Under the pieces are notes generated by a model that was given only the letters and a program-made list of their open reading frames with translations, searched no databases and was not told the DNA's origin. From Candidatus Nitrospira nitrosa (GTDB lineage Bacteria; Nitrospirota; Nitrospiria; Nitrospirales; Nitrospiraceae), in contig NZ_CZQA01000011.1 of NCBI RefSeq assembly GCF_001458735.1, positions 85,483 to 117,482 on the forward strand: a DNA stretch of 32,000 nt. The letters are read 5' to 3'. A program made the position numbers and the translations under genes. Shown here one piece after another: positions 3,001 through 28,587 of the stretch (its first letter is position 1; each line of letters opens with the position of its first letter).

Positions 3001-6000
3001 GGTGATGCGGGGAACGATACGTTGCAAGGTGATCAGGGGAACGATGCGCTCGTCGGCGGGGCGGGCAATGACATCTACAACTTCAGTCTCGGTGACGGAC
3101 AGGACACGATCACGGATGCAGCAGTGGGAGCAGAGGGAAATGTCATCAATTTCGTCGCTGGGATCACGCCGGACGCGTTGACCTTCGTGCACGATCCAGC
3201 GCAACAGATGCTCACGATTCAGGTCGGCGGCGGGGCTGATTCGATCCGCCTGCTTGGGTTTGATCCCAACACCTTCCAGTATGTCGTTGAGACGCTTCGA
3301 TTCGCCGACGGCTCGTTTGTGGCGTTGGCCGATCAGTTGCCGCTTCCGGGAGGGGTGGTCGAAGGGACGGATGAGGCCAACATCATTCGTACCGGTTCGG
3401 GCGATGATACCGTCTTTGCCGGAGCCGGTAACGATGTAGTGTACGCGGGGGCTGGAAATGACCTCCTCGTGGGAGGTGACGGTGCTGATACCTTGCAGGG
3501 AGGAGCAGGGCAGGACCAGTACCTGTTCGATATCGGTGATGGAGCGGATACGATCGTCGATACGGCAGGCGAGGGCAATCGGTTGGTCTTCGGCGCGGGG
3601 CTGATGTCGAGTGTTCTCACGTTGGAGAGGGGGACCAGCAATACCCTGGAGATTCGCGGGCCGTTGTCAGGTGACCGGCTCCAAATCGGTGCGCTTGTTC
3701 CCGGTGCCTCGCCGATCAGTACCTTCGAGTTCGCTGACGGTACCGTGCTGACCTTTGAACAGTTCATCGCACGCGGGATTGATCTTCGTGGGACTCCGGA
3801 CGCGGATGTGATCACAGGTACGAGTTTTGTCGATCGAATTGCCGGAGAGGCCGGCAACGACATCCTCCAAGGCGAAGCCGGCAACGACGTGCTCGATGGT
3901 GGGGCCGGTGACGACCAGCTGTACGGCGGCGAGGGAGCCGACCAGTTATTCGGTGGTGCCGGCGATGATGTTGTCGTCACCGACGCGGATGACACGGTCC
4001 GAGACGGCGGAGCCGGTATCGATACGATCAGCTTCCAGGGCGTCTTCGGCATCACCTTTGACCTTGGAACGTCCAATTTTGAGAACGCGATGGGAACGGA
4101 TGGGGATGATACGCTCACCGCCGCTTCCGCCGTCGGCTCGGTGCAGCTCGTTGGAAACGGAGGCAACGATATCCTGACAGGTGGGTTTGGTGACGATGTG
4201 CTTGTGGGCGGAGAGGTGTTTGTCGGCGAGGGGGCGGCCGATACACTGACGGGCGGGGCCGGCAACGATCGGCTTGAAGGTGGAACGGGTGACGATGCCT
4301 ATCGATTCAATCTTGGGGACGGACAGGACCGGATCGTTGATTCGGCCGTGCGTGAGGATCCATTCGGTGGTGGTGAAGGAGGCGGCGGAGGAACGATTCT
4401 CGAACACAACCGTCTTGTTTTTGGGGAAGGAATCAACAGTCAAGCGTTACAGCTGAGCTTTGGGCCTGGCGCGATCCCGCTCATCGATGGAATTGCGGCG
4501 GGCAGTCTACGCCTGAGCGTGGGAGCCGGCGACTCGCTGGTCTTGTCGGACTTCGATGCTGCCGATCTCTTCAGCCGGTACACCATCGAATCTTTCGAGT
4601 TTGCCGACACCACCTCGTTGACCTATGCCCAATTGGTGGAGGAGAGAGGCTTCGACGTCATCGGGACGGATGAGAGTGATATCGTGACGGGGACAGCGGT
4701 TGCAGATCGGATCAATGGTTTCGACGGGCAGGATGTACTTCGTTCCGGGCTGGGTGCCGACCAGCTCGATGGTGGGGCCGGGGACGATCAGCTTTTCGGC
4801 GGATCTGGTAATGACACGTATGTCTTCGGCGTGGGGACCGGACGGGATGTGGCGTTTGATCCGACTGGGTTCGACACAATCCGTATGGGTGAGGGGATCG
4901 CGCCGACGGATGTGCGGGGAGCTCGTGAAGGGAACGATCTCGTCCTCTCATTATCGAGTACGAACGATAGCCTGACACTTCAAAACTTTTATCTACACTC
5001 CATCTTCCAGGTGGAGCAGGTGACATTCGCGGATGGGACGATATGGGATCACGCACGCCTGCTGGCGAGTACTCGGCGTCAGATCGACGGCAGTGCCGGC
5101 GATGATGTGCTGACGGGCGGGGCGACGGACGACACGATCGTGGGATCGGCTGGTCACGATGCACTGATCGGCCAAGCGGGGGATGATGTGTTGGACGGCG
5201 GGACCGGCGCTGATGTCATGACGGGCGGGGACGGAGCGGATACCTATGTGGTGGATGACGCCGGAGATATCGTGATTGAATTGGTCGGCGAAGGAATAGA
5301 TACGGTGTACGGCGGAATCACCTATGCGTTGACCGCCAACGTCGAGAACTTGATTCTGACCGGCCCAGCGGCGATTGAGGGCACTGGAAATGAACTGGAC
5401 AACATGCTGACCGGCAATGCCGGAGTCAATGTACTGACCGGTGGCGCAGGGAACGACACCTATGTGATCGGGGCCGGTGATCTGGTGGTAGAGGAGGCCG
5501 GCGAAGGCGTTGATACAGTCGTGACCGACCAGAGCTATGTACTTGATGCGAATGTCGAGAACCTCACGCTGACAGGAACGTTCGCGCGTAACGGTACGGG
5601 GAATGAACTGGACAATGTGCTGACCGGCAATGCCGGAGTCAATGTGCTGATTGGTGGCGCGGGGGACGATACCTATGTGATTGAGGCCGGTGACCTGGTG
5701 GTGGAGGCTGCCGGCGAAGGCACGGATACGGTTGTCACGGCTCAAGACTATGTGCTTGGGGATGCGATAGAAAACCTGAGGCTGACGGGAAATCGGTCTG
5801 TCAACGGTGTAGGGAACGAGCTGGACAACAGGCTAGTTGGAAACGCAGCTGCGAATATTCTGCAAGGTGGGCTCGGCAACGACACCTACGTGGTCGGGTC
5901 GGACGATCTCGTAGTGGAGGCGGCGGACGCAGGCGATGATACCATTGAGGCTGCTGAGAGCTATGCTCTGGGAGCACACATCGAGAATCTCACCTTGCTC

Positions 6001-16127: not shown

Positions 16128-17522
16128 GTGAAACGTGAGAGGTCAAAGGTGAAGAGTGAGAGAGGGGCAGAAGAGAAACTGTGCCTCCGTGATCGATGTA
16201 GAGTGCTCGGTGTTGCCATCGTTGCTGTTGTAGCCACGACGAGTGCGGTTTGGGCGGGGGAGGCGGGGAATTCCGATCGGTTGATCCCGTCGCCGATGCT
16301 CTCGTTGACGTTGCGCGAAGCCTTGTCGGCCGCTGCCGACAGCAATCCCGATGTGCTGCTGTACAAGGAACGGATTCAAGAAGCCAAAGGCCAGGTGCAG
16401 ACACAGTTGGGAGCCATGTTACCCAATCTTTCCGCCGATGTTCGACAGAGCCGGCGGACACAATTTCTTGGGACTATCGGTCTCTCACCCGTGCGTACAG
16501 ATCCCTTCAGTATTTTCGATGCCCGGATCAGTGCGACGCAAAATCTCTTCAGCCTCAGCTTGATTCAGCGGTGGCGGGCTTCGCGGCAGTCACTACAGAT
16601 GACGGAACAGGAGGCGGAAGCCAAGAAGCTTGACACAATGGCCACTGTGGCATTGGCTTATATGGAAGGGCTGAAAGCGATGGCCCTGATCAAGGCGCAT
16701 GAATTGAATCAGCAGATCATGGAGGAGTTACTTGGAACGATTCGACAGCGGCAGCGTGGGGGCCTGGCCACAGGGCTCGATATTGCACGACTGGAAGCCC
16801 AACTAGCGGCAGAGCGGCAGCAGAGTTCCTCGGCTGGGTATGAGCTCGACCATGCCAAATTCAGCCTGATCAATCTGCTCGCGTTACCGACGCACAGTGC
16901 CGTGGCGCTGACCGATCAGTGGCGCATGGACGTGCCGGAGATTCCACGGTCGCAGAAGGCTGTCGAGGATGCGCTCGGTCAACGCCCCGAGGTCCAAGCG
17001 CAGTCTACCCGCGTACGAGCGGCTGAATTGATGTATGCCTCCATGACGGGGGAACGGGTGCCGTCACTCGTGGCACAGGGTGACTATGGGCTGGTCGGCA
17101 ATCGCTGGAGTAATACGCTTGATACTTACAGTATGGCGCTCATTCTTCAGATTCCCATCTTCGATGGCGCACAACGTGAAGGGCGCATTGTTCAAGCGCG
17201 AAGCCAGTGGCAACAAGAGGCTCTTCGGATGAGGTCTGTGCTCAACCAAGTCACCATGGAAGTTCAAGATGCCCTGGCATCACTGACTGCGGCGAAAGAA
17301 CAGGTGGGGATCGCCCAGGCTGGTCTCCGGATGGCGACGAAGGAGCTTGATCTGGCCCGGGAACGCTATGCCGTCATCACTTCCGCCAGCCACTTTGAAC
17401 TGACGAATGGACTCTCGGCTGTCGCCCGTGCGCGAGAAAACCTCGTCAACGCGCTCTTTCAGCTGAATGCCGCCCGCATCAATCTCGCCCGTTCGACCGG
17501 GAGTCTGGAGACACTGAACTAG
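16128..17522 (+). CDS. TolC-family outer membrane efflux protein (T1SS outer membrane component)
   Basis: 464 aa. GGAGG at 16113-16117 lies 10 nt before the GTG at 16128. The signal-like segment is VLGVAIVAVVATTSAVWA. Duplicated TolC-type repeats are present (LSLTLREALSAAADSNPDV.. and ..LDLARERYAVITSASHFELTNGLSAVARARENLVNALFQLNAARINLARSTG). The gene directly follows the ABC and MFP genes. An alternative start is GTG 16203. Confidence 0.88.
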   Translation: MKRERSKVKSERGAEEKLCLRDRCRVLGVAIVAVVATTSAVWAGEAGNSDRLIPSPMLSLTLREALSAAADSNPDVLLYKERIQEAKGQVQTQLGAMLPNLSADVRQSRRTQFLGTIGLSPVRTDPFSIFDARISATQNLFSLSLIQRWRASRQSLQMTEQEAEAKKLDTMATVALAYMEGLKAMALIKAHELNQQIMEELLGTIRQRQRGGLATGLDIARLEAQLAAERQQSSSAGYELDHAKFSLINLLALPTHSAVALTDQWRMDVPEIPRSQKAVEDALGQRPEVQAQSTRVRAAELMYASMTGERVPSLVAQGDYGLVGNRWSNTLDTYSMALILQIPIFDGAQREGRIVQARSQWQQEALRMRSVLNQVTMEVQDALASLTAAKEQVGIAQAGLRMATKELDLARERYAVITSASHFELTNGLSAVARARENLVNALFQLNAARINLARSTGSLETLN

Positions 17523-17689
17523 TGGCATGCGGAAACAGTCCGTCGGCGATGCTTTCGTCTCTGTGCTCGCGACGGCCTTTCTGCTTTCGATAACGATCCT
17601 CTCGGCGTATAAGTCGCGCTGAGAGGGTGCAGCTGTGTCTTGATTGATTCACCTTCGAAGGTGGATAATTCCTGGGAGAGGGTTGGGTT

Positions 17690-18775
17690 ATGCCTGCATC
17701 CCGAGTTCGAACCTGGGTTCTTGCAGCTGGTATTGCCGCACTGCTGCTCCATTTTCCTACAGAAGTGGCACAGTATCTCCTGGCCCTTGTTCCGTATCAG
17801 CGCTCGACGCCTTTCGAGCTGGAGACCCTCACAGAGGTCGCACATGAAAATATCACCACGTTCTCACCTCGAACGTCCGATGAGTCAGTGTGGAAGGCCG
17901 TCATCACCCGGGTGTTTGGCATGGCGTTGATCGGACTGCCGGTTTGGTATTTCCTGCAGCGTCGAGAGCGCGAAGAAGAGCTACAGCAGCTTGATAAAGG
18001 CTGGGCCGCGCGCTTGCACGCACGCAGCGAAGAGTTAATGGCCGTCAATCACGCACTCGTCAGCGAGGTCTCGAAACGAATTGATACCGAACAGTCCCTG
18101 GAGGCCAACCGACGGGATCTGCGCATGCTTGCTTCTCAATTGCTTCGCCTTCAGGAAGAGGAACGACGGCGAATCTCACGTGATCTGCACGACGATATCA
18201 ATCAACGACTAGCGCTCTTGTCGATCGACATTGAAATGTTAGAACGGCAGCTCTCACACGCGGCCGTCGGGACTGTCCGAACGGTGCGCAGCATTCAGGA
18301 TCGTATTGTCGAACTGTCCGAAAGCGTTCGGCGTCTCGCCTATCAGTTTCATCCGTCCGTCCTTGATGATCTGGGCTTGTCTATTGCGCTCCGACGTCTT
18401 ATTGATGATTTTCAGACTCGTACCGGTCTCGATGCTCGGTTCATCAGCAAAGAGATCCCGCAGCACCTGGCGCAGGACGTGGTCACATGCTTGTACCGTG
18501 TGACACAGGAAGGGTTGGCAAACATCGCGCGCCATGCGAGGGCACAAACCGTGCTGGTCGAACTGATGCGAGTGCGAGACGGGTTGCAGCTTCTGATACG
18601 GGATGACGGAGTGGGGTTTGACGTGAATCATGACGGCGGTCAGCGAGGTAGTCTCGGGCTGTTGAGTATGAAGGAACGAGTTGCGTTAGTTGCTGGGACG
18701 TTCACGATAGACTCGACACCGGGTACAGGAACACGTATCCGTGTCTGGGTTCCGTTTACACAGGAGTCTGTATGA
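17690..18775 (+). CDS. Sensor histidine kinase, HisKA_3 type (NarX/DegS-like), with two TM helices and a short external loop
   Basis: The H-box is EEERRRISRDLHDDINQRL. The HATPase segment reads ..LYRVTQEGLANIARHA.., IRDDGVGFD, GSLGLLSMKERVALVAGTF. Two N-terminal hydrophobic helices are present. The stop overlaps the next gene's start (ATGA at 18772). Confidence 0.88.
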   Translation: MPASRVRTWVLAAGIAALLLHFPTEVAQYLLALVPYQRSTPFELETLTEVAHENITTFSPRTSDESVWKAVITRVFGMALIGLPVWYFLQRREREEELQQLDKGWAARLHARSEELMAVNHALVSEVSKRIDTEQSLEANRRDLRMLASQLLRLQEEERRRISRDLHDDINQRLALLSIDIEMLERQLSHAAVGTVRTVRSIQDRIVELSESVRRLAYQFHPSVLDDLGLSIALRRLIDDFQTRTGLDARFISKEIPQHLAQDVVTCLYRVTQEGLANIARHARAQTVLVELMRVRDGLQLLIRDDGVGFDVNHDGGQRGSLGLLSMKERVALVAGTFTIDSTPGTGTRIRVWVPFTQESV

Positions 18776-19419
18776 GTAAGCCTCGCGTACTCTTGGCGGA
18801 TGACCACGCCCTGGTGCTGGAAGGGTTCAAAAAGCTGCTGGAAGAGCATTGTCAGGTCGTCGGGTCCGTAGAAGATGGTCGTGCGTTGCTCGATGCAGCG
18901 GAACGCTTGCAACCGGACATTGTGGTCTTGGATATTTCGATGCCTAAACTGAACGGTCTCGATGCGGCGCGTCGGTTGCGAAAGATGGTGCCTCGACCAC
19001 GACTGATTTTTGTGACGGTGCATGCGGATCAGGACTATGTCACTCAAGCTTTCAAGGCCGGCGCTTCAGCCTACCTGCTTAAACGGTCGGCGGGATCCGA
19101 GCTGGTACAGGCCATTGAAGCTGTGATGCACGACAATTATTACGTCACGTCGTTGATTGCCAAGGATCTGGTCCACGCTGCGATCGCGGACACGGAGTCG
19201 GACACCGGCGTGCAGGATCGCTTGCCGATGCGACAACGAGAGATTTTACAGCTTGTGGCTGAGGGACTGACACTCAAGGAAATCGCCTCAACGCTAGGGC
19301 TCTCTCCCAAGACGGTCGAGTATCACAAAGCCAAGCTCATGGAGCAGCTTGGCCTTCATACTACCGCTGAACTGACAAAATACGCACTCGCTCACGGGCT
19401 TACACCTTCCTCCGAGTAA
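18772..19419 (+). CDS. Response regulator, NarL/FixJ family (REC domain plus LuxR-type HTH)
   Basis: The REC domain reads VLLADDHALVLEGF...DIVVLDISMPKLNG...AGASAYLLK. The C-terminal segment is LPMRQREILQLVAEGLTLKEIASTLGLSPKTVEYHKAKLMEQLG. The gene is translationally coupled to the kinase. Confidence 0.9.
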   Translation: MSKPRVLLADDHALVLEGFKKLLEEHCQVVGSVEDGRALLDAAERLQPDIVVLDISMPKLNGLDAARRLRKMVPRPRLIFVTVHADQDYVTQAFKAGASAYLLKRSAGSELVQAIEAVMHDNYYVTSLIAKDLVHAAIADTESDTGVQDRLPMRQREILQLVAEGLTLKEIASTLGLSPKTVEYHKAKLMEQLGLHTTAELTKYALAHGLTPSSE

Positions 19420-19689
19420 CAGTCTTCGTTTCCTCATTTCTTGGTGCATCCATTCCAAGGGAATTTCCGTCCCGACCCTAGGCATGTCCCGTATGGCACA
19501 GACCATGAGGTTTTGCTAAGTATGAGACAAGCTGCGGCGGGTCCTATGAAAAGGAGGTTTGTGGTGGCCTCCGGAGGAGACCCGAGGTTGTCGCCATGTT
19601 GATACAACAACTCGGCTCTTCTTCAATCGATGGGTCACCTGAAACGTATCGACCTACGCATGCGAATAATCTAACAGGGAGGTATCGTC

Positions 19690-20508
19690 ATGGCAGCATC
19701 AAGTGAGCGAGGGTATGACGTCTCGCAGTGGTACGATTCGAAGCCGGTGAAGATCGGCTGGTTTGCGATGTTGGCGATCGGGGTGTTTTGGGTCCTGTAC
19801 CAGCGAACCTTCGGGTATTCGCATGGGTTGGATTCCATGACCCCGGAGTTCGAGTCGGTGTGGATGGGGCTGTGGCGGTTTAACATTTTGGCCAACGCCA
19901 TCTTCTTTGCCGTCTCGATCGGGTGGATCTGGGTGACGCGGGATCGGAACCTGACGAACCTGGACCCGAAGCTGGAGCTGAAGCGGTACTTTTACTGGAT
20001 GGGCTGGTTGGTGTGCTACATCTGGGGCGTGTACTACGCGGGGAGCTACACGTTGGAGCAGGATGCGGCGTGGCATCAAGTGATCATCCGGGACACGAGC
20101 TTTACGGCGAGCCACATAGTGGCGTTCTACGGGACGTTCCCGCTGTACATTACGTGCGGGGTGTCGAGCTACCTGTATGCACAGACGCGGTTGCCGCTGT
20201 ATAGCCAGGCGACGTCGTTCCCGTTGGTGGCGGCGGTGGTGGGGCCGATGTTCATTCTACCGAACGTGGGGCTCAATGAGTGGGGCCATGCGTTCTGGTT
20301 TGTGGATGAGCTGTTTGCGGCGCCGTTGCACTGGGGCTTTGTGACGTTGGGCTGGTGCGGGTTGTTCGGCGCGGCCGGTGGAGTGGCGGCGCAGATCGTG
20401 AGCCGGATGTCGAATCTGGCGGACGTGATCTGGAACAACGCCCCGAAGAGCATCTTGGATCCGTTCCCGGCCCAGGTGCAGAGCGCCAGCGCCAAGAGCG
20501 TGTACTAA
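19690..20508 (+). CDS. amoC: Ammonia monooxygenase subunit C (CuMMO C subunit)
   Basis: 272 aa. GGGAGG lies 7 nt upstream of the ATG. Diagnostic segments are [26 protein letters not shown] and [27 protein letters not shown]. The length is typical for AmoC/PmoC, and amoA follows directly. Confidence 0.93.
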
Positions 20509-20605
20509 GCAGATCGGTCGGTCTCGGAGGCGAGCCTGGGTGGTCGCGCGAATAAGCAAGGCTCAGGCCGCTTCTGATCGGCTGAAATGACGGAGGATGT
20601 CAGTT

Positions 20606-21448
20606 ATGTTTAGAACCGATGAAATTATCAAGGCCTCGAAATTGCCGCCGGAAGGGGTGGCAATGTCTCGGCACATTGATCACATCTATTTTATCCCAAT
20701 TTTGTTCATCACCATCGTCGGGACCTTTCACATGCACACCGCGTTGCTGTGCGGGGACTGGGATTTTTGGCTGGACTGGAAGGATCGGCAATGGTGGCCG
20801 ATCGTCACCCCGATTACGACCATTACGTTTTGTGCGGCCCTGCAGTATTACAATTGGGTGAACTATCGTCAGCCGTTCGGGGCGACGATTACGATTCTGG
20901 CGCTTGGGTTCGGAAAGTGGATTGCCGTCTATACGTCGTGGTGGTGGTGGTCGAATTATCCGCCGAACTTCGTCATGCCGGCGACACTGCTGCCGAGCGC
21001 ATTGGTCTTGGACATCACGCTCTTGCTCACCAGGAACTGGACCTTGACGGCGGTGATCGGCGCATGGATGTACGCGATTCTGTTTTATCCCAGCAACTGG
21101 CCGATCTTTGGCTATAGCCACACCCCGATCGTGGTCGATGGCTCGTTGCTCTCATGGGCCGACTACATGGGCTTCATGTATGTCCGGACCGGGACGCCGG
21201 AGTACATCCGCATGATCGAGGTCGGGTCGCTGCGCACCTTCGGTGGGCACAGCACCATGATCTCGGCCTTCTTCTCGGCGTTTGCCTCGTCGCTTGTGTA
21301 CGTACTGTGGTGGCAGTTCGGGAAATTCTTCTGCACCTCGTACTTCTACTTCACGGATGACAGGCAGAGAACGGTCAAGGTGTACGACGTATTCGCCTAC
21401 GCCACGTTAGCACACGGCGATAAGGCAAAAGTTGGGGGGAAAGCATGA
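20606..21448 (+). CDS. amoA: Ammonia monooxygenase subunit A (clade-A comammox-like)
   Basis: Key segments are [17 protein letters not shown].., [55 protein letters not shown] prefer ATG 20606 because GGAGG (20592-20596) is 9 nt upstream. The longest ORF starts at ATG 20597, which abuts the SD. The sequence tacaattgggtgaacta (20849-20865) and the complement of agatcatggtgctgtg (21248-21263) match, from memory, the clade-A comammox amoA primer sites and lie 415 bp apart. Confidence 0.93.
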
Positions 21449-21517
21449 ACGCCACATCTCGAACACATGATTCGGAGAGTCATGTAGAGTCGGCGTTCTA
21501 AGTAGGGGCTGGTAAGA

Positions 21518-21551
21518 ACCGGCGGGCTCGATTATCCGAGCTCGCCGGCTT
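21518..21551 (+). terminator. Hairpin terminator candidate downstream of amoA
   Basis: ccggcgggctcg (21518-21529), loop attatc, cgagctcgccgg (21536-21547). This is a 12-bp stem with one G-U pair, followed by cttt. The U-tract is short, so the hairpin is strong but the terminator call is moderate. Confidence 0.6.
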
Positions 21552-21684
21552 TGGTGGTCTGAGTATGACGGTGAATGTCAGCAATAGTGAAACGGACATG
21601 AACGGTCCACACAGCGTCTTATCGTGTGGACACGCATCACGGTGATCGGCCCTCTATCGTGGCGGATCCTCTGGGAGGCTAGAA

Positions 21685-23478
21685 GTGAAAAGCAAGACGC
21701 AAACCATCGTATTTTGGATGATCGTGGGCCTGTCGATATTCTTTCTTCTCAACCTCTGGAATACACCTACGCGTGCGGTCGTAGAGGAAGAGATTATGTT
21801 TAGCGACTTCATGGCAAAACTCGACCAGGGTGCTGTCGAGAAGGTCACCATGCAGGGACATCGTCTCACCGGCGTGTTGAAAGATAACTCCCAGGTGCGA
21901 ACCTACATGGCGGACTATCCTGATCTCGTCCAAATGCTGCGCGAGAAGCATGTTCAGATCGAGGTCAGGCCGCAGGGTGAAAGTGCTTGGTATGTGACGG
22001 TGCTCATGACCTGGGGGCCGTTCGTGCTTTTTCTCGGGGTGTGGCTGTTCATTATGCGCCGAATGCAGAATGGGAACGCGGCCTTATCTCTCGTGAAGAA
22101 TAGGGCCCGCATGCTGACGGATGAGCGGAAAAAAGTCACGTTTTCCGATGTGGCGGGCATTGACGAAGTGAAAGCGGATGTGCAGGAAACGGTCGAATTT
22201 CTGAAGGACCCCAGGAAGTTCCAAAAACTCGGCGGGCGCATTCCCAAAGGTGTGTTGGTCGTGGGCCCGCCTGGGACCGGGAAGACACTTTTGGCGAAGG
22301 CGATTGCCGGCGAAGCGGGCGTACCGTTCTTCAGCATTAGCGGTTCAGACTTTGTGGAAATGTTTGTGGGAGTCGGAGCCTCCCGTGTTCGCAGTATGTT
22401 CGAAGACGCAAAAAAGCATGCTCCTTGTATTATCTTCATTGATGAAATCGACGCAGTCGGACGATCACGAGGAGGGGGGATTGGGGGCGGCAACGATGAA
22501 CGCGAGCAAACACTCAATCAGTTGCTGGTTGAGATGGACGGATTTGATACGACAGAGGGCGTGATTTTGGTGGCGGCTACCAATCGGCCAGATGTCCTTG
22601 ACCCTGCTCTGCTGCGGCCAGGTCGATTCGACAGGCAAGTCGTGGTGAATCATCCCGATCTGAGGGGCCGGACGGAGATCCTGAAGGTTCATGCGAAAAA
22701 AGTTCCGGTGGCAGCAGACGTGGACCTGCAAACAATCGCTCGAGGAACCCCGGGATTCTCAGGCGCCGATTTGGAAAACCTCGTCAATGAGGCGGCGCTG
22801 TGGGCAGCTCGTCAGAGCAAAGACGAGGTGGGGTCCGCGGATTTTGAGAAGGCGAAGGATAAGATTCTGATGGGTGCCGAGCGCAAGAGCATGATATTGA
22901 CGGACGAGGAGAAGCGTGTCACCGCGTATCATGAGGCTGGTCATGCCTTAGTAGCGCAACTCCTGCCTGGTACAGATCCCGTTCACAAAGTATCGATTAT
23001 TCCGAGAGGTCGCGCACTGGGGGTGACCTTACAGTTGCCGACCAATGACCGCCACAATTACTCCAAAGAGTTCTTATACAACACGCTCGCCATTCTTCTT
23101 GGGGGCAGGGTGGCCGAAGAGCTGGTGTTCAACCAGGTGACAACCGGTGCTGGCAACGATTTGGAACGGGCTACAGCCCTTGCGCGGCAAATGGTATGCG
23201 AATGGGGTATGAGTGAAACGCTGGGACCTCTCACGTTCGGGCAGAAAGAGGGAACAACATTTCTGGGACGTTCGTTTTCGACGAATCGTGACTGCAGTGA
23301 TCAAATGGCAGCGGAGATTGACCTGGAAATCAAGCGTCTCATCACAGAAAACTATGCAAGGGTCAGGCAGGTGTTGACGGAACGGATGACGACCTTGGTT
23401 GCGCTGGCAGAAGCACTTCTGGAAAAGGAGGTGTTGGATGCAAGGGAGATTCAAGAGGTTCTTCTGCGGTCGTCTTAA
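21685..23478 (+). CDS. ftsH: ATP-dependent zinc metalloprotease FtsH
   Basis: 597 aa. GTG start with GGGAGG 6 nt upstream. Two N-terminal TM helices. Walker A is GPPGTGKT, Walker B is IIFIDEIDA, the SRH segment is [19 protein letters not shown], and the zinc site is HEAGHAL. Confidence 0.95.
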
Positions 23479-23693
23479 GATGGTTCGATCTAACGCGCAG
23501 TATTCATGAACGCTTCTCTTGGACCCCGTATCGAACCCGTGAAGAAACGTCTGAGGAAAGGGTAATCAACGGCGGAATACACCCGGCATCATTGTGGTGA
23601 TGTCATTGGGTCGTTTCACGCCGCTATCACCAAGCTCGACATCTTCTTACCCTGACGCGTGGAGATCGTTACAGACCTGTTGATTGTGGTGTC

Positions 23694-24599
23694 TATAGCC
23701 AAGCCCTCAATTACTGATGGACATAGGCAGTGGACTTTAGCGATCATGCGGGCATGAGATGTTCACCAGATTTGCGCCAGCGGGTCGTGGATTTTGTCCG
23801 AAGTGGGGGAAGCAAGGCCGACGCGGCTCGGCGGTTCAAAGTCGGTGAGGCGAGCGTGTACCGCTGGCTCAAGCCTGGTGGCCTAACGTACCAGCGTCCT
23901 GGTCCTCGTCGGGCCCACAAATTGGATTGGGAGCAGTTACGCCGTCATGTGGAGGACCATCCCGATCGGATACAAGCAGAACGGGCGCGGCATTTCCACG
24001 TCTCCCGACATTGCATCTGGAACGCGCTGCGCAAACTGGCCGTCACGCATAAAAAAAAGGATGGGCTACCAAGAACGTGACCCTCTCCAACGACGACGGT
24101 TCCTCCGTCTTCGTGAACGGTTTCTGCGACGCGGCAAACAGCCCGTCTACATCGATGAATGTGGGTTTGCCCCGTCGACGGTGCGGCGCTATGGATACGC
24201 GCCGAAAGGCCAGCGTGTAGATGGCCTGGTGTCCGGGCATCGACGGCCACGCACCTCGCTCATTGCCGCTCGTATGGATGGGCAACTGGTAGAGCCCTGT
24301 CTGTTCAAAGGCACCTGCGATACCGTGGTCTTCAACGCGTGGCTGCAGACGAGATTGTGCCCGCGCCTGACCGCCCACCATCTCGTCATCATGGACAATG
24401 CCACCTTTCATACCTCGCCCGAAACAGCGCAGCTCATCAAGGCGACTGGGGCGACCTTGCTATTCCTTGCACCCTATTCCCCCGACCTCAATCCCATCGA
24501 GCGGGACTTCGCCGTGCTGAAGAAACGCCGGGAATATCAGGAGCAAGCCACGCTCGACGACATCGTCAAGGCCTATCAATGATTGTGAACTTAGCTATA
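23694..24599 (+). mobile_element. IS630-family insertion sequence (~0.9 kb) with imperfect terminal inverted repeats and TA at both ends
   Basis: The left end ctatagccaagccctcaattactgatggac (23693-) and the reverse complement of the right end ctatagctaagttcacaatcattgataggc (-24600) match at 21 of 30 positions by hand alignment. Both junctions read cTATAg, consistent with a TA target duplication, but the exact boundary is ambiguous by 2-3 nt. Confidence 0.7.
23754..24582 (+). CDS. IS630-family DDE transposase encoded in two overlapping frames joined at an A8 run
   Basis: Frame A (23730/23754-24080) encodes MRCSPDLRQRVVDFVRSGGSKADAARRFKVGEASVYRWL, an HTH. Frame B (to 24582) encodes VYIDECGF.., ..LVIMDNATFH.., ..DLNPIERDF, a DDE triad with the second D and the E separated by 34 residues. 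The frames meet at aaaaaaaa (24051-24058). A +1 shift, or one fewer A, fuses them as ..VTHKKK/RMGYQERD... Confidence 0.85.
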
Positions 24600-24681
24600 G
24601 TGTTTTCCGGGGTGTCTTATGCTCGATCTCTCACGCGCAGTCCCATACCTATGTCGGCTATCGACCGGTGGTAGAATGCTC

Positions 24682-25554
24682 TCAGTTCATTCCACAACTC
24701 CCCAGGCTGATCGTTACTCCGGGATGTTTACTTTTCCAGAAGTTGAATGCCTCATCATCGATAATCTCAAGTGTTTTATGCCCTCGCTCACAGGTATGAC
24801 CTGATTCATGGGTAAAGAGAGCAAAGTAACATGCCTGACGGTCTTCAAGGTTTGGGAGTGCCCGTACCGTGGTGAGAAAGCCTGGACACATATGGCATTT
24901 TTTCGTCAAAGGGCTTGCCCAGCCATTCGCACCTTTGCACATACCGTCCATTGTTTTTTCGCACACCACTTTCCCATTCTTCTTGAAGCGATCTTCTAGA
25001 CAGCTCCCTATATTGACCGGCCAACCTCGAATCCCTTCAAGGGTCTTTTCAAACTCAGTCCAATTATCGGCTCCCCAGTCGATCGCCTGTCCGATTTCCG
25101 TCGTCTCCTGTGATGAGCAGTCTGTAACATTCGATGCTGCGGGAGATAGCTCCTCACTACTGATCGTGACCGTCTTTCGCATCTTATCCGTACACGTGAA
25201 GTCATCCGTGACCGTACTCACGGCATCTTCCCATTTCGTCCCTCCGATATGCCGCTGGTATGTCACCTTAAATTTTGTTGTATCTTTTTCTATGTGTTCC
25301 AGATCCTGCTTTTTGGTCCACTCCTTACCAGGTAAAATCTTCTGATGTCCATCTACACCAAACATGGATTCCGTGCGCCATTTGTCGGCCTTATAATCAT
25401 AGTATTGAAACTTGGTTACCTTGATTTCGTCCGCCGTGTCGTTTTTAAAGGTGATGTCGACATTGCTACAGACATCACCGATTGCCAGTGCCTGTTCCGT
25501 CATTGATATAAGGCCCATGGATATTGCTGCGACAAAGAAGGCTGTTCTGTACAT
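24682..25554 (-). CDS. Secreted Cys-rich protein with a C-terminal HExxH domain (M35/aspzincin-like peptidase fold suspected), encoded in a lower-GC island
   Basis: The SD is strong (gaaaggagataccgtATG). The signal peptide is MYRTAFFVAAISMGLISMTEQALA. The N-terminal half is beta-rich (VDITFKNDTADEIKVTKFQYYDY..). The C-terminal half reads DCSSQETTEIGQAI...VVCEKTMDGMCKGANGWASPLTKKCHMCPGFL...ALFTHESGHTCERGH. This contains HESGHTCERGH, an HExxHxxxxxH arrangement. Confidence 0.75.
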   Translation of the reverse strand: MYRTAFFVAAISMGLISMTEQALAIGDVCSNVDITFKNDTADEIKVTKFQYYDYKADKWRTESMFGVDGHQKILPGKEWTKKQDLEHIEKDTTKFKVTYQRHIGGTKWEDAVSTVTDDFTCTDKMRKTVTISSEELSPAASNVTDCSSQETTEIGQAIDWGADNWTEFEKTLEGIRGWPVNIGSCLEDRFKKNGKVVCEKTMDGMCKGANGWASPLTKKCHMCPGFLTTVRALPNLEDRQACYFALFTHESGHTCERGHKTLEIIDDEAFNFWKSKHPGVTISLGSCGMN

Positions 25555-25984
25555 ACGGTATCTCCTTTCTGCGGTTCATGCCGATCAGGCGAAAGAATAC
25601 GTTGTAGGTGTTCCTGAGTGAATCTCCTGTTTTTAGCTGGCTTCGTCTAAGCAAGTTACCTAGCAATAGACGTGCCTCACCGAGCAGAAGCCAGGACTGG
25701 TCCATTTCACCATCTGGAGTGGTGGATCTTGCTGGAAATGGGGATATAGATGGGATGAACCTCAGCACGAACGGATCTGAAGGAGTCGGATATGTGAGTA
25801 TCAAAAAGGATACAGGGATGTATCGTTTTTTTGAGGAAGCAGAAAGTTGATGTCCGAGAAGAGGTGAGGTTGATGGCACTCGATCTTGTTCGATAGTGCG
25901 TATCGTGTACAAAAGGTGATCGGTGCTCTGGTCGATCACACAACCTAGAAGAGTTTTTTAGAGAAAAAGATGAACGAGGCTAGC

Positions 25985-26190
25985 CATCCAGATGGTGACG
26001 AAGAAGCTCGATTTGGCTCGCCACGCCACCATTGTTTCCACCAGCCACTTTGCGCTGACCAATGGACGCACCGCGTCTTTCGCGTGAGAGAAAACCTCGT
26101 TAACGCACTCTTTCAGCTCAACGCCGCCCGCGTCAATCTCGCTCGTTCGATCGGGAGTCTACAGACCTTGCAGGAGCGGGCTCTGATTCG
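25985..26190 (+). pseudogene. Decayed 3' fragment of a second TolC-family gene
   Basis: The segment is alignable at nucleotide and protein level with 17331-17522, the 3' end of the intact TolC-like gene. Compare MVTKKLDLARHATIVSTSHFALTNG.. / ..RENLVNALFQLNAARVNLARSIGSLQTL with MATKELDLARERYAVITSASHFELTNG..RENLVNALFQLNAARINLARSTGSLETL. The fragment contains an internal frame break and premature TGA (~26086), has lost the stop at the homologous position, and has no 5' part. Confidence 0.8.
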
Positions 26191-26334
26191 CCATCCATTC
26201 GCCGTACTATCGAGCCGTTGAAGAAGCAACGATTCATTGCCCTTTAATCCTGTTGCGTTACGATAAGTCATCCACATTGTCTGAGGACTATCTCCGGCAT
26301 TGACTTGATTCGACCCTTCACGCACACTCCCGGC

Positions 26335-28587
26335 ATGTACGATCAGTCTGAAAGTGACCTCTTACGGATGTTGGCCGATCGGGCCGGCATTGCGGCGGAC
26401 TACTACGACATTGCCGGCACCCAGCATGTGACGACTGATGAGGCCCGACGTGCCATCCTCGGTGCCATGAATCTGCAGGTTGGCACGCGTGAAGAGCTCG
26501 TGGCGGAACTCGAAGCATGGGATGATCGCTGGTGGTTGCGAGGGTGTGAACCGGTCCATGTGTTGCGATTGGGATGTCCGGCGGGAACTTGGTCGCTGTA
26601 CGTGCCATGTGAAAGTTCAGACGAGTCCGATTTGTCCGTCAGATGGACCGTCACTACGGAGCAGGGAGATGCGCGATCTGAGCAGATGGAGGGGCAGGGC
26701 TTTACGATTGAAGAGAGCCGAACGATTCAGGGGCGGCGGTTTATTCGCACCACAGTGGCCTTTCCGCAAGATCTCCCGCTCGGGTATTACACGCTGACCG
26801 CCCAGACCAAAGGGGGCCGCACGAACACGGACGTGACCTCTCGCCTCATCGTCGCACCGGAACGGTGCTATATCCCTGATCCGCTGCAGCAGGGGATGCG
26901 ATGGTGGGGCGTCGCTCTGCAACTCTATTCTTTGCGGAGCCAGCAGAATTGGGGGATCGGGGATTTCCGTGATCTCGGTGCGGTCATCGACTGGGCCGGC
27001 AAACAGTTGGGCGCCTCAGTGATCGGGCTCAATCCGCTCCATGCGCTTAAGAACACGAAGCCCTATCACATCAGTCCCTATTCACCCACCAGCCGTCTCT
27101 TCCTCAATGACGTGTATATCGACATCTCCCAGGTTTCGGAGTGTCGGACGGATGCCGAGGTACAAGCCCGGTTGGCTGATCCCACGGTTCGTGCTCGGAT
27201 CGATGCGGCGCGGCAAAGCGAGTTAGTGGACTATGAGGCGGTGCAATCGGTCAAACGAGAGGTTCTCGAGCTGTGTTATCGGGCATTTGTCCGGGATAAC
27301 TTCGATGGGGTTGAACCGGAGTTATGTCCGACCACCGATCGAGGGAGAAGTTTTCAAGACTTCACGGAGCGAGAGGGTGAGTCGCTTCTACGCTATGCGC
27401 TGTTTCAAGCGTTGGAAGAGGCGCAACGGGCCGCTCAATCTCCCCCCATCACCTGGGAGGATTGGCCTGAACCCTATCGCACGCCGACATCGGAAGAGGT
27501 GGGAGCATTTCGCCGTTGCCATATGCATCGGGTGCGGTTTTTTGAATATCTGCAATGGTTGGCAGCTGAGCAATTACGCGGGCTGGTCAAGCAGACGCAT
27601 GATGCAGGGATGCCGATCGGTTTGTACCATGACTTTGCCTTGGGTAGCGATCGCTACGGCGCCGATGGGTGGTTGAATCGAGAGGTGCTCGCCTTCAAGG
27701 CCGACTGTGGAGCCCCGCCCGATGCCTTTGCGCCGGAAGGACAAAATTGGGGTTTTTCCCCTCTCGACCCGTTGCGACTGCGTGCGAACGGGTATCGGTA
27801 TTTTAGTGTGTTGCTCCGTAACAATCTCCGCTATGGAGGTGCGATACGGATCGACCATGTCATGGCACTCTTTCGACTGTTCTGGATTCCCCGTGGACTT
27901 CCCCCTGCGATGGGGACCTATGTGTATTATCGAGACGACGAACTATTGGCCATCCTGGCGTTAGAGAGTGTGCGGGCAAAAGCACTGGTGATCGGTGAAG
28001 ATCTGGGTACCGTTCCTGATTGGGTGCGTGAGCGACTCGGACCGGCCGGGGTCTTATCCTATCGAGTTTTCTATTTTGAGCGAGAACATTGGGGAAGATG
28101 GAAGCCTCCGGCTCAGTACCCTGCGCAAGCCCTCGCGGTGGCCACGACACACGATCTGCCGACGCTGGTGGGATACTGGGAGGGTGCGGATATCGAAACT
28201 CGATCCGCACTGGGCTTGTTTCCTTCGGAGGATGCACGGCAAGCGATGTGGGCGGACCGGCAGCGAGAGAAGAGTGGAATCCTCGCGGCCTTGAAGTCGG
28301 ACGGCCTGCTGCCCTCCTGGGTCTCCGATGATCCGGCGTACACGCCCGCCATGACGTCTGAACTCGTGGAATGTATTCATCAGTATCTGGCCCGAAGCCC
28401 TGCCTGGCTGGTCTTGGCCAATCTCGAAGATATGATCGGCACCCGACTCCAGACCAATCTTCCAGGGACGGTGGATCAGCATCCGAATTGGTGTCGGAAA
28501 TTGAGTGCGACGGTGGAGGACTTGACTCAAGATCCTCGCCCTCAACGGCTTGCGGCCCTGTTGCGTTTGACCCGCCCTCTTGTGTAA
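26335..28587 (+). CDS. malQ: 4-alpha-glucanotransferase (amylomaltase, GH77), long form
   Basis: Key segments are YSLRSQQNWGIGDFRDLGAVIDWAGKQLGASVIGLNPLHAL, GMPIGLYHDFALG, IRIDHVMALFRLFWIP, VIGEDLGTVPDWV. The N-terminus MYDQSESDLLRMLADRAGIAADYYDIAG.. resembles the E. coli MalQ N-terminus, so I prefer ATG 26335 over the TTG at 26305. Confidence 0.9.
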   Translation: MYDQSESDLLRMLADRAGIAADYYDIAGTQHVTTDEARRAILGAMNLQVGTREELVAELEAWDDRWWLRGCEPVHVLRLGCPAGTWSLYVPCESSDESDLSVRWTVTTEQGDARSEQMEGQGFTIEESRTIQGRRFIRTTVAFPQDLPLGYYTLTAQTKGGRTNTDVTSRLIVAPERCYIPDPLQQGMRWWGVALQLYSLRSQQNWGIGDFRDLGAVIDWAGKQLGASVIGLNPLHALKNTKPYHISPYSPTSRLFLNDVYIDISQVSECRTDAEVQARLADPTVRARIDAARQSELVDYEAVQSVKREVLELCYRAFVRDNFDGVEPELCPTTDRGRSFQDFTEREGESLLRYALFQALEEAQRAAQSPPITWEDWPEPYRTPTSEEVGAFRRCHMHRVRFFEYLQWLAAEQLRGLVKQTHDAGMPIGLYHDFALGSDRYGADGWLNREVLAFKADCGAPPDAFAPEGQNWGFSPLDPLRLRANGYRYFSVLLRNNLRYGGAIRIDHVMALFRLFWIPRGLPPAMGTYVYYRDDELLAILALESVRAKALVIGEDLGTVPDWVRERLGPAGVLSYRVFYFEREHWGRWKPPAQYPAQALAVATTHDLPTLVGYWEGADIETRSALGLFPSEDARQAMWADRQREKSGILAALKSDGLLPSWVSDDPAYTPAMTSELVECIHQYLARSPAWLVLANLEDMIGTRLQTNLPGTVDQHPNWCRKLSATVEDLTQDPRPQRLAALLRLTRPLV

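Follow-up and report, generated by a model that had tools for sequence, protein, structure and literature searches.

A predicted exported two-domain protein of Candidatus Nitrospira nitrosa with a putative zincin-like metallopeptidase domain

The M35 aspzincins, deuterolysins and peptidyl-Lys metalloendopeptidases (PF02102, PF14521; structure 1EB6), share a small, secreted, disulfide-rich zinc endopeptidase fold in which a Cys-containing beta region precedes the HExxH helix and a short connector leads to the helix of the third ligand; HExxH provides two His ligands and the catalytic Glu, activity depends on zinc, and the peptidyl-Lys group takes Lys at P1'. The third ligand is an Asp within the GTxDxxYG motif (PMC3938660), and a title in the reference list of PMC3386192 names His128, His132 and Asp164 as the ligands of deuterolysin. 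The AsaP1 proenzyme of Aeromonas salmonicida (2X3A, 2X3B and 2X3C) is made up of a signal peptide, a beta-rich N-terminal domain and a zincin domain. Minimal zincins, such as the minigluzincin selecase (4QHF) and WLM/Wss1 (5XBN), have a compact helical core, and metzincins combine HExxHxxGxxH with a Met-turn, their third His following a Gly turn. M36 gluzincins carry HExxH plus ExxxD on the following helix (PMC3938660), and the fungal zincophores Pra1/Aspf2, rich in Cys and His, are secreted proteins with a deuterolysin-like scaffold (PMC3386192). Here we analyse a protein of 290 amino acids (aa) encoded in a 32,000-nucleotide (nt) stretch of the Candidatus Nitrospira nitrosa contig NZ_CZQA01000011.1 (positions 85,483 to 117,482), the whole of which is called the window below. 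Its predicted fold resembles that of M35 in the features just listed, and it shares with AsaP1 the order of signal peptide, beta-rich domain and zincin-like domain. In our opinion it is probably a zinc endopeptidase that is exported by the Sec route, stabilised by disulfides and fused to a separable beta-sandwich; it would belong to a new zincin family distantly related to M35. The features of the locus are collected in Table 1.

The reading frame of the gene stays open for just seven codons upstream of the ATG, and AAAGGAG is kept in front of the copies of the gene in the genomes of Nitrospira sp. UW-LDO-01 and Nitrospira sp. ACE_NIT13. The N-terminus, MYRTAFFVAAISMGLISMTEQALA followed by IGD, has a basic n-region (Arg3), a hydrophobic core at residues 5–18 with a Kyte–Doolittle maximum of 2.41, and an AxA site; two-domain homologues keep this site followed by IGDVCSN, and the N-terminus is hydrophobic in 49 of 53 homologues. 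Judged by these n-, h- and c-regions and the AxA site, the protein appears typical of Sec substrates. The original prediction, made from the letters of the sequence, had proposed a convincing minus-strand gene with a strong Shine–Dalgarno sequence and a signal peptide, as well as about ten cysteines and the motif HESGHTCERGH in the C-terminal half. All of these are present, the cysteines numbering nine (146, 185, 198, 206, 220, 223, 242, 255 and 287), together with a single HExxH at residue 249. The gene is single-copy in the host genome, where hidden Markov models (HMMs) of both domains found no second copy. It differs from the UW-LDO-01 copy at 8 nt and from the ACE_NIT13 copy by 137 nucleotide and 32 amino-acid changes. 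The ratio of non-synonymous to synonymous substitution rates (dN/dS) in the latter comparison is 0.049 at a dS of 1.06 (0.066 for the N-terminal and 0.023 for the C-terminal domain), and such a ratio of approximately 0.05 indicates purifying selection on a functional gene.

Table 1. Features of the locus, with positions in the window.
Feature	Position	Strand	Basis or remark
Gene of the 290-aa exported two-domain protein	24682..25554	-	Open reading frame (ORF) and translation; stop codon included
Shine–Dalgarno sequence AGGAG	25562..25566	-	7 nt 5' of the ATG; read from sequence
Sec-type signal peptide, residues 1–24	25483..25554	-	Predicted cleavage between ALA and IGD, after Ala24; sequence features
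N-terminal beta-sandwich, residues 25–135, conserved Cys pair C29/C121	25150..25482	-	AlphaFold2 (AF2) model, alignment A3, census
C-terminal Cys-rich zincin-like domain, residues 136–290	24685..25149	-	AF2 model, Foldseek, alignments A2 and A4
Putative metal/catalytic site, H249-E250-x-x-H253-T-C255-x-R257-x-H259-x-x-x-E263	24766..24810	-	Column counts
Low-GC (46.5%) 5' leader/promoter region travelling with the gene	25555..25976	-	ACE_NIT13 comparison
Inverted repeat GATACA-N4-TGTATC	25809..25824		Perfect; in the leader/promoter region
Decayed second copy of a native TolC-like gene's 3' end, island boundary	25977..26166	+	77% identical to window 17317–17512
IS630-family element, not part of the cassette	23693..24599	+	HTH_Tnp_IS630 and DDE_3 in two frames

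Searches of Pfam, NCBIfam, PADLOC, PHROGs and PDB sequences with the protein gave nothing usable, and its relatives were found in larger collections. A search of 5.8 billion proteins returned 53 relatives, 16 of them full-length at 60–89% identity; the others match the C-terminal approximately 150 residues alone (50–70% identical) and come from metagenome-assembled genomes (MAGs) of several phyla. An exhaustive HMMER search of 1.84 billion representatives gave 167 matches at E<=1e-3, which divide cleanly into a group covering residues ~25–132 and another covering residues ~139–290. When HMMs of both halves were run on 198 retrieved proteins, 93 had the N-domain only, 78 the C-domain only and 17 the N-C fusion, with tandem N-N and N-N-N arrangements in seven and two proteins, respectively. 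The protein is built of two independent modules, the N-terminal beta-sandwich and the C-terminal domain. In other proteins the latter either has nothing in front of it or follows a Cys-rich PCGxDGxC...DPDCP linker, DUF7450 repeats or a domain of approximately 230 aa, the last of these in four further species of the genus. These four species encode a secreted paralogue type of approximately 390 aa (L002, L003, L040 and L041) with the C-domain motif HEFSHTCEHYAEAGPE; the ~230-aa N-terminal part of the four paralogues has no Pfam match.

The full-length AF2 model has a mean predicted local distance difference test (pLDDT) value of 87 and consists of an all-beta N-domain, a linker of lower confidence and a mixed alpha/beta C-domain; modelled alone, the C-domain reaches a pLDDT of 91.5 and a predicted template-modelling score (pTM) of 0.89. 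In the PDB the full-length model is matched best by the AsaP1 proenzyme, whose three entries give E 3e-5 to 2e-4 and a probability of 0.99–1.0 over ~302 columns, and next by deuterolysin at a probability of 0.99. With the C-domain model, deuterolysin 1EB6 ranks first (probability 0.98, template-modelling score (TM) 0.50/0.45, 175 columns, E 0.088, root-mean-square deviation (rmsd) 6 Å), ahead of selecase (0.77) and then of several small zincins of low probability, among them Wss1 and archaemetzincin, and the viral library BFVD yielded weak minimal zincins only, IrrE-like and SprT-like. This ranking of AsaP1, deuterolysin and small zincins leads us to read the modelled fold of the C-domain as that of a zincin whose closest match, with a borderline score, is M35. 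Minimal zincins resemble it in their compact helical core and as second-rank fold matches (probabilities 0.1–0.77); they differ in being cytoplasmic or archaeal and Cys-poor, and have no sequence similarity to it past the motif. Eight cysteines (146, 185, 198, 206, 223, 242, 255 and 287) are conserved, a number that would fit four disulfides in an exported protein, and C220 is subfamily-specific.

The sequence relation to M35 was analysed with a profile of 34 diverse C-domains (alignment A2). Among PDB sequences at E<=10 it matched deuterolysin alone (E 0.071), over 91 columns running from the Cys-rich beta region into HExxH. Sub-threshold matches to PF14521 occur in four of the 34 relatives, the best (P0079) scoring 22.3 bits against a cut-off of 30 over profile positions 44–103; the protein itself has no Pfam match at E<=1, and PF14521 found nothing in the host genome. 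GTxDxxYG is absent from the protein and from all aligned relatives, whether 34 or 54 are counted. It is invariant, as T-x-D-x-x-Y-G, in a comparison set (A6) of 29 canonical bacterial Aspzincin_M35 proteins, seeded with the sole Aspzincin_M35 found in 401 Nitrospirota genomes, for which 43 homologues were collected. The protein is also unlike M35 in its Cys pattern, in the lack of a conserved Tyr, in a domain of approximately 150 aa and in the downstream sequence x-C-x-R-x-[H/E]-x3-[E/D]. Because GTxDxxYG is missing and the gathering scores of PF14521 and PF02102 are not reached, we reject membership in M35; homology to it is plausible from these profiles but not demonstrated. The original prediction had anticipated both sides of this result: the resemblance to M35, now backed by AsaP1 and deuterolysin as best folds and by the deuterolysin and PF14521 sequence matches, and the lack of the GTxDxxYG segment.

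In place of the aspzincin motif the family has a conserved HExxH-x-C-x3-[H/E]-x3-[E/D], followed by x2-[D/E]266. Within A2, H249, E250 and H253 are each present in 31 of the 34 sequences, C255 in all and R257 in 22; column 259 holds Glu (20), His (10) or another residue (4), column 263 Glu (24) or Asp (6), and column 266 Asp (16) or Glu (11). The three members without HExxH (P0125, P0155 and P0167) have lost residues 259 and 263 as well, which suggests that these belong to one functional site with HExxH. In the AF2 model HExxH ends a helix (236–253), a five-residue turn, T-C-E-R-G, follows, and residues 259, 263, 266 and 270 lie on one face of the next helix (259–276). In an ungapped hhalign match the Asp ligand of aspzincins, at +7 from the second His, comes to stand just one residue past position 259. 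On the strength of the column counts, the helix face and this Asp position, we favour residue 259, a His here, as the probable third ligand, with E263 as a supporting acid; alternatively, Glu263 could itself be the third ligand. Such an [H/E]259-x3-[E/D]263 arrangement would recall the ExxxD of gluzincins; it begins helix 259–276 after a spacer of just five residues from HExxH, short as in aspzincins. As in minimal zincins, the third-ligand candidate stands six residues past the second His on the following helix, and the interchange of His and Glu at this position is one that we take to resemble them too.

The His six residues after the second His had been read in the original prediction as a metzincin feature. 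His259 is indeed there, giving this one protein the HExxHx5H spacing, but the analogy to metzincins does not extend to the family, in which the column is Glu in 20 sequences and His in 10. We rejected a metzincin assignment because the residue at +3 is Glu256 and not Gly, the third His varies, and no Met-turn is conserved: the sole candidate is Met289, part of the C-terminal CGM, and its column holds Met in just 11 of the 34 sequences, with L, F, T and others in the rest. The third-ligand candidate here starts a helix, unlike the metzincin ligand, and the only PDB match of metzincin type was archaemetzincin 2x7m at a probability of 0.14.

The conserved site also bears on whether the protein acts on peptides at all. 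A non-catalytic metal binder built on a deuterolysin-like scaffold and secreted to scavenge or chaperone zinc (or copper) would have a precedent in Pra1, a secreted zinc scavenger without protease activity that models best on deuterolysin (PMC3386192). The family is rich in Cys and His, its three HExxH-less members persist, and one two-domain homologue on a metagenomic contig of 67–68% GC (L023, 201–5738) adjoins the gene of a giant protein of 1845 aa with SpaA-like repeats and a MopE copper-binding domain. However, Pra1 is non-proteolytic and has HRxxH, with Arg in place of the catalytic Glu (PMC3386192), whereas Glu250 is kept in 31 of the 34 sequences. This retention argues against a Pra1-like scavenger; besides, none of the contexts examined has a metal transporter next to the gene, and disulfide formation in an exported protein accounts better for the conserved cysteines. 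We therefore regard a metal-binding role as very improbable.

Turning to the N-domain, the beta-rich N-terminal region that the original prediction had left unassigned is all-beta in the AF2 model, with pLDDT mostly above 90, and its family likewise has no Pfam match. Standalone homologues (alignment A3) are secreted proteins of approximately 130 aa in which both cysteines of the pair are invariant. In the Foldseek search of the PDB the domain matched binding sandwiches of a generic kind, namely CBM20, cytolysin domain 4, aegerolysin and PUD-1/2. It occupies a C-terminal position in three proteins of ~430–520 aa. In P0055 and P0057, two metagenomic proteins with a mutual identity of 58%, it is followed by an unrelated but conserved C-terminal domain of ~235 aa that contains FLVHEAGYH and has no Pfam match; this may be another unannotated secreted enzyme domain. 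By its occurrence the N-domain is an independent, promiscuous module.

Such promiscuity matters for the comparison with AsaP1. If the protein were an AsaP1-like zymogen, the N-domain would be a propeptide, a chaperone or inhibitor blocking the active site, and would be removed by autoprocessing in the Ser/Pro/Ala-rich linker (~131–145). The AsaP1 proenzymes are the best full-length matches, at probabilities up to 1.0 and with both domains in the same order, and they drop out when the C-domain is searched alone, so that the N-domain must contribute to the match; the lower pLDDT of the linker also agrees with processing there. We nevertheless consider a zymogen unlikely, since the N-domain mostly occurs without a peptidase (93 standalone proteins, nine tandem arrays, three C-terminal placements and the two fusions to the unrelated 235-aa domain) and 78 C-domain proteins lack it, with no separate N-domain gene beside them in a split-gene (Rosetta) test using HMMs of both domains. 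The TM to AsaP1 is just 0.27–0.28 at an rmsd of 16 Å, a low value that reflects a different orientation of the domains, and the other matches of the N-domain are the generic binding sandwiches. A beta-sandwich that targets the enzyme is thus more likely than one that inhibits it.

The same shuffling could point to an antagonistic effector, a secreted toxin against neighbouring microbes or eukaryotes in which the N-domain delivers or binds and the C-domain is an exchangeable payload. The N-domain is combined with at least two unrelated C-terminal domains and the C-domain with at least four N-terminal regions, the distribution is patchy and mobile (see below), and Aspzincin_M35 domains have been reported as toxic domains of bacterial type VI secretion system (T6SS) effectors (bioRxiv 10.64898/2026.09.28.754971). 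An immunity-like gene is, however, not conserved next to the gene in the window, in UW-LDO-01, in ACE_NIT13 or in four other contexts. The signal peptide of the protein is of the Sec type, delivery domains for the T6SS or for contact-dependent transfer are lacking, PADLOC and PHROGs gave no match, and nothing points to a target. We hold a toxin of this kind to be quite doubtful.

A zinc endopeptidase with a separable targeting module remains our preferred reading, and its mechanism may be pictured as follows. After Sec export and removal of the signal peptide behind Ala24, the mature protein of approximately 30 kDa would fold in the oxidising environment of the periplasm or outside the cell. 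Zinc would be bound by two residues of the active-site helix, His249 and His253, and Glu250 would activate water, the third ligand being provided by the next helix, past a five-residue, Cys-anchored turn, presumably by residue 259 backed by the acid at 263. The N-terminal beta-sandwich, a separable part, would most likely direct the enzyme to a substrate or surface. The gene together with approximately 400 bp of upstream DNA forms a small low-GC cassette. More tentatively, the C-domain family might bridge aspzincins and minimal gluzincins through a third ligand behind a short spacer, alternating between His and Glu, and a turn fixed by an invariant disulfide Cys; with the beta-sandwich it could then make up a set of shuffled, Sec-exported effectors exchanged among nitrifiers and other biofilm bacteria for antagonism or protein scavenging. 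We offer this wider scenario as a speculation that is rather less than probable.

The gene stands out in its base composition and is patchily distributed. Positions 24600–25984 have a GC content of 47.5% against 54.8% for the genome, a value as low being found in just 0.7% of 1.4-kb genome windows. With a GC content of 0.472 the gene falls under the 1st percentile of 2375 long ORFs; at its third codon positions the value is 0.514, compared with a mean of 0.616 (4.6th percentile). The hand counts of the original prediction were reproduced exactly (46% at 25201–25300, 48% at 25701–25800 and 62% at 20001–20100). Its low-GC island at 24600–25984 was confirmed in composition but not in its limits: the anomalous stretch is 24600–25976, after which the decayed TolC-like copy begins. 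Some 330 bp of DNA upstream of the gene are 69% identical to those preceding the ACE_NIT13 copy, which is at another locus. The inverted repeat of this leader precedes the start codon by approximately 255 nt; runs of A and of T border it, and a third GATAC comes after it. Its GATAC/GTATC arms are retained in the ACE_NIT13 copy (L029, about 3150–3200) despite the overall identity of 69%. The repeat is possibly an operator or a small hairpin. No Rfam match was found in 23400–26400.

Within the genus, the two-domain orthologue is present in three of 134 species genomes and the ~390-aa paralogue type, with a C-domain 39–43% identical, in four. In a search of related loci with alignment A4, the carriers from other genera that bear a name were MAGs of Thermoanaerobaculia, Acidobacteriota, Gammaproteobacteria, Deltaproteobacteria, Myxococcaceae and Oligoflexia, and a two-domain homologue of 62% identity lies on metagenomic contigs of 67–68% GC. 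In ACE_NIT13 the cassette is a patch of 45–48% GC in a background of 55–59%. It has trpF-trpB-trpA on one side and a TraF_2-like/ABC transporter cluster on the other, and the host assembly carries the homologues of the two flanks on separate contigs (C1 and C8). UW-LDO-01 has the cassette at the same locus as the window, at 96.7% identity. In G009, a relative of the same genus, ftsH and malQ are separated by 410 bp, and homology to the window ends at 23494 and resumes at 26216. The comparison with related genomes that had been proposed as a check for an insertion thus shows the gene missing from one ftsH–malQ junction, placed elsewhere in a second genome and at the same locus in a third. Together with the occurrence in three of 134 species genomes, this speaks for the horizontal acquisition suggested at the outset. 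The pattern is that of an accessory, horizontally spread element of a few Nitrospira and of unrelated phyla.

Several observations weigh against the reading given here. No Pfam, NCBIfam or PDB sequence match of the protein lies above threshold, and hhalign of A2 with A6 reached a probability of 15% over 19 columns, in which just the HExxH helix was aligned (4.5% with a single-sequence M35 template). The TM of the model to deuterolysin (0.45–0.50) is borderline. No operon partner is conserved in seven contexts and no conserved neighbour hints at a substrate; the island showed neither a sigma-70 consensus nor a terminator. The low GC content of the cassette is in part compositional: the GC content at first codon positions is 0.48, and homologues in other hosts are also 2–10 GC points below their flanks, so part of the anomaly is due to amino-acid composition. 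Finally, the dS between the gene and its ACE_NIT13 copy, 1.06, is similar to that of malQ (0.92), which leaves repeated transfers indistinguishable from one early acquisition with later relocation and losses.

The IS630-family insertion sequence (IS) next to the cassette begins the description of a rearranged neighbourhood. It is 82 bp from the stop codon of the gene, and an A8 run at 24051–24058 divides its HTH and DDE frames. A 100% identical copy occurs on contig 14 (C14:82581–83487), its match ending at window position 24599, and at least five further diverged copies or fragments (67–81%), including C10:458213–459117, are present in the genome; this family has therefore been repeatedly active. 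UW-LDO-01 has the gene without the IS, at the same locus and with an empty site that joins window position 24598 to 23695, and this identifies the insertion as recent and separate. No IS630 match was found within approximately 4 kb on either side of the ACE_NIT13 gene. As the IS ends at 24599 and the gene occurs without it in both genomes, the idea that the gene is an IS630 passenger or part of a composite transposon was rejected.

The UW-LDO-01 locus (L028, 2567–4707) has an additional gene for a 274-aa short-chain dehydrogenase (adh_short_C2) between ftsH and the cassette, which is absent from the window. Its ftsH is 87% identical at the DNA level, compared with 96.7% for the cassette and malQ, a difference that suggests recombination within that locus. 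In ACE_NIT13 (L043, G090:C30, 1–5158), homologues of the window's orf726, orf233 and orf289 accompany an intact TolC-like gene, and malQ follows directly. In the genome analysed here, approximately 8.5 kb separates the intact TolC-like gene from its decayed 3' copy next to malQ (window 17523–26166), and this stretch holds a two-component system, amoC, amoA, ftsH, the IS630 element and the HExxH cassette. The TolC remnant was not detected between ftsH and malQ of G009. By these comparisons the region 17523–26166 is a rearrangement hot spot.

The family would add to the zincin metallopeptidases a member for which Pfam and NCBIfam hold no model, with 167 clusters at E<=1e-3 among the 1.84 billion representatives. 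Its variant metal-site motif informs the evolution of third-ligand positions between aspzincins, gluzincins and metzincins, and the widespread secreted beta-sandwich of approximately 110 aa is a second unannotated module, likewise not assigned to a family. These results are a gain in annotation that does not overturn current understanding, and they make the protein a reasonable target for structural genomics. Comammox Nitrospira are regarded as strict chemolithoautotrophs. The protein described here would be among the few accessory exported hydrolases of such an organism, and hints at protein degradation or interference.

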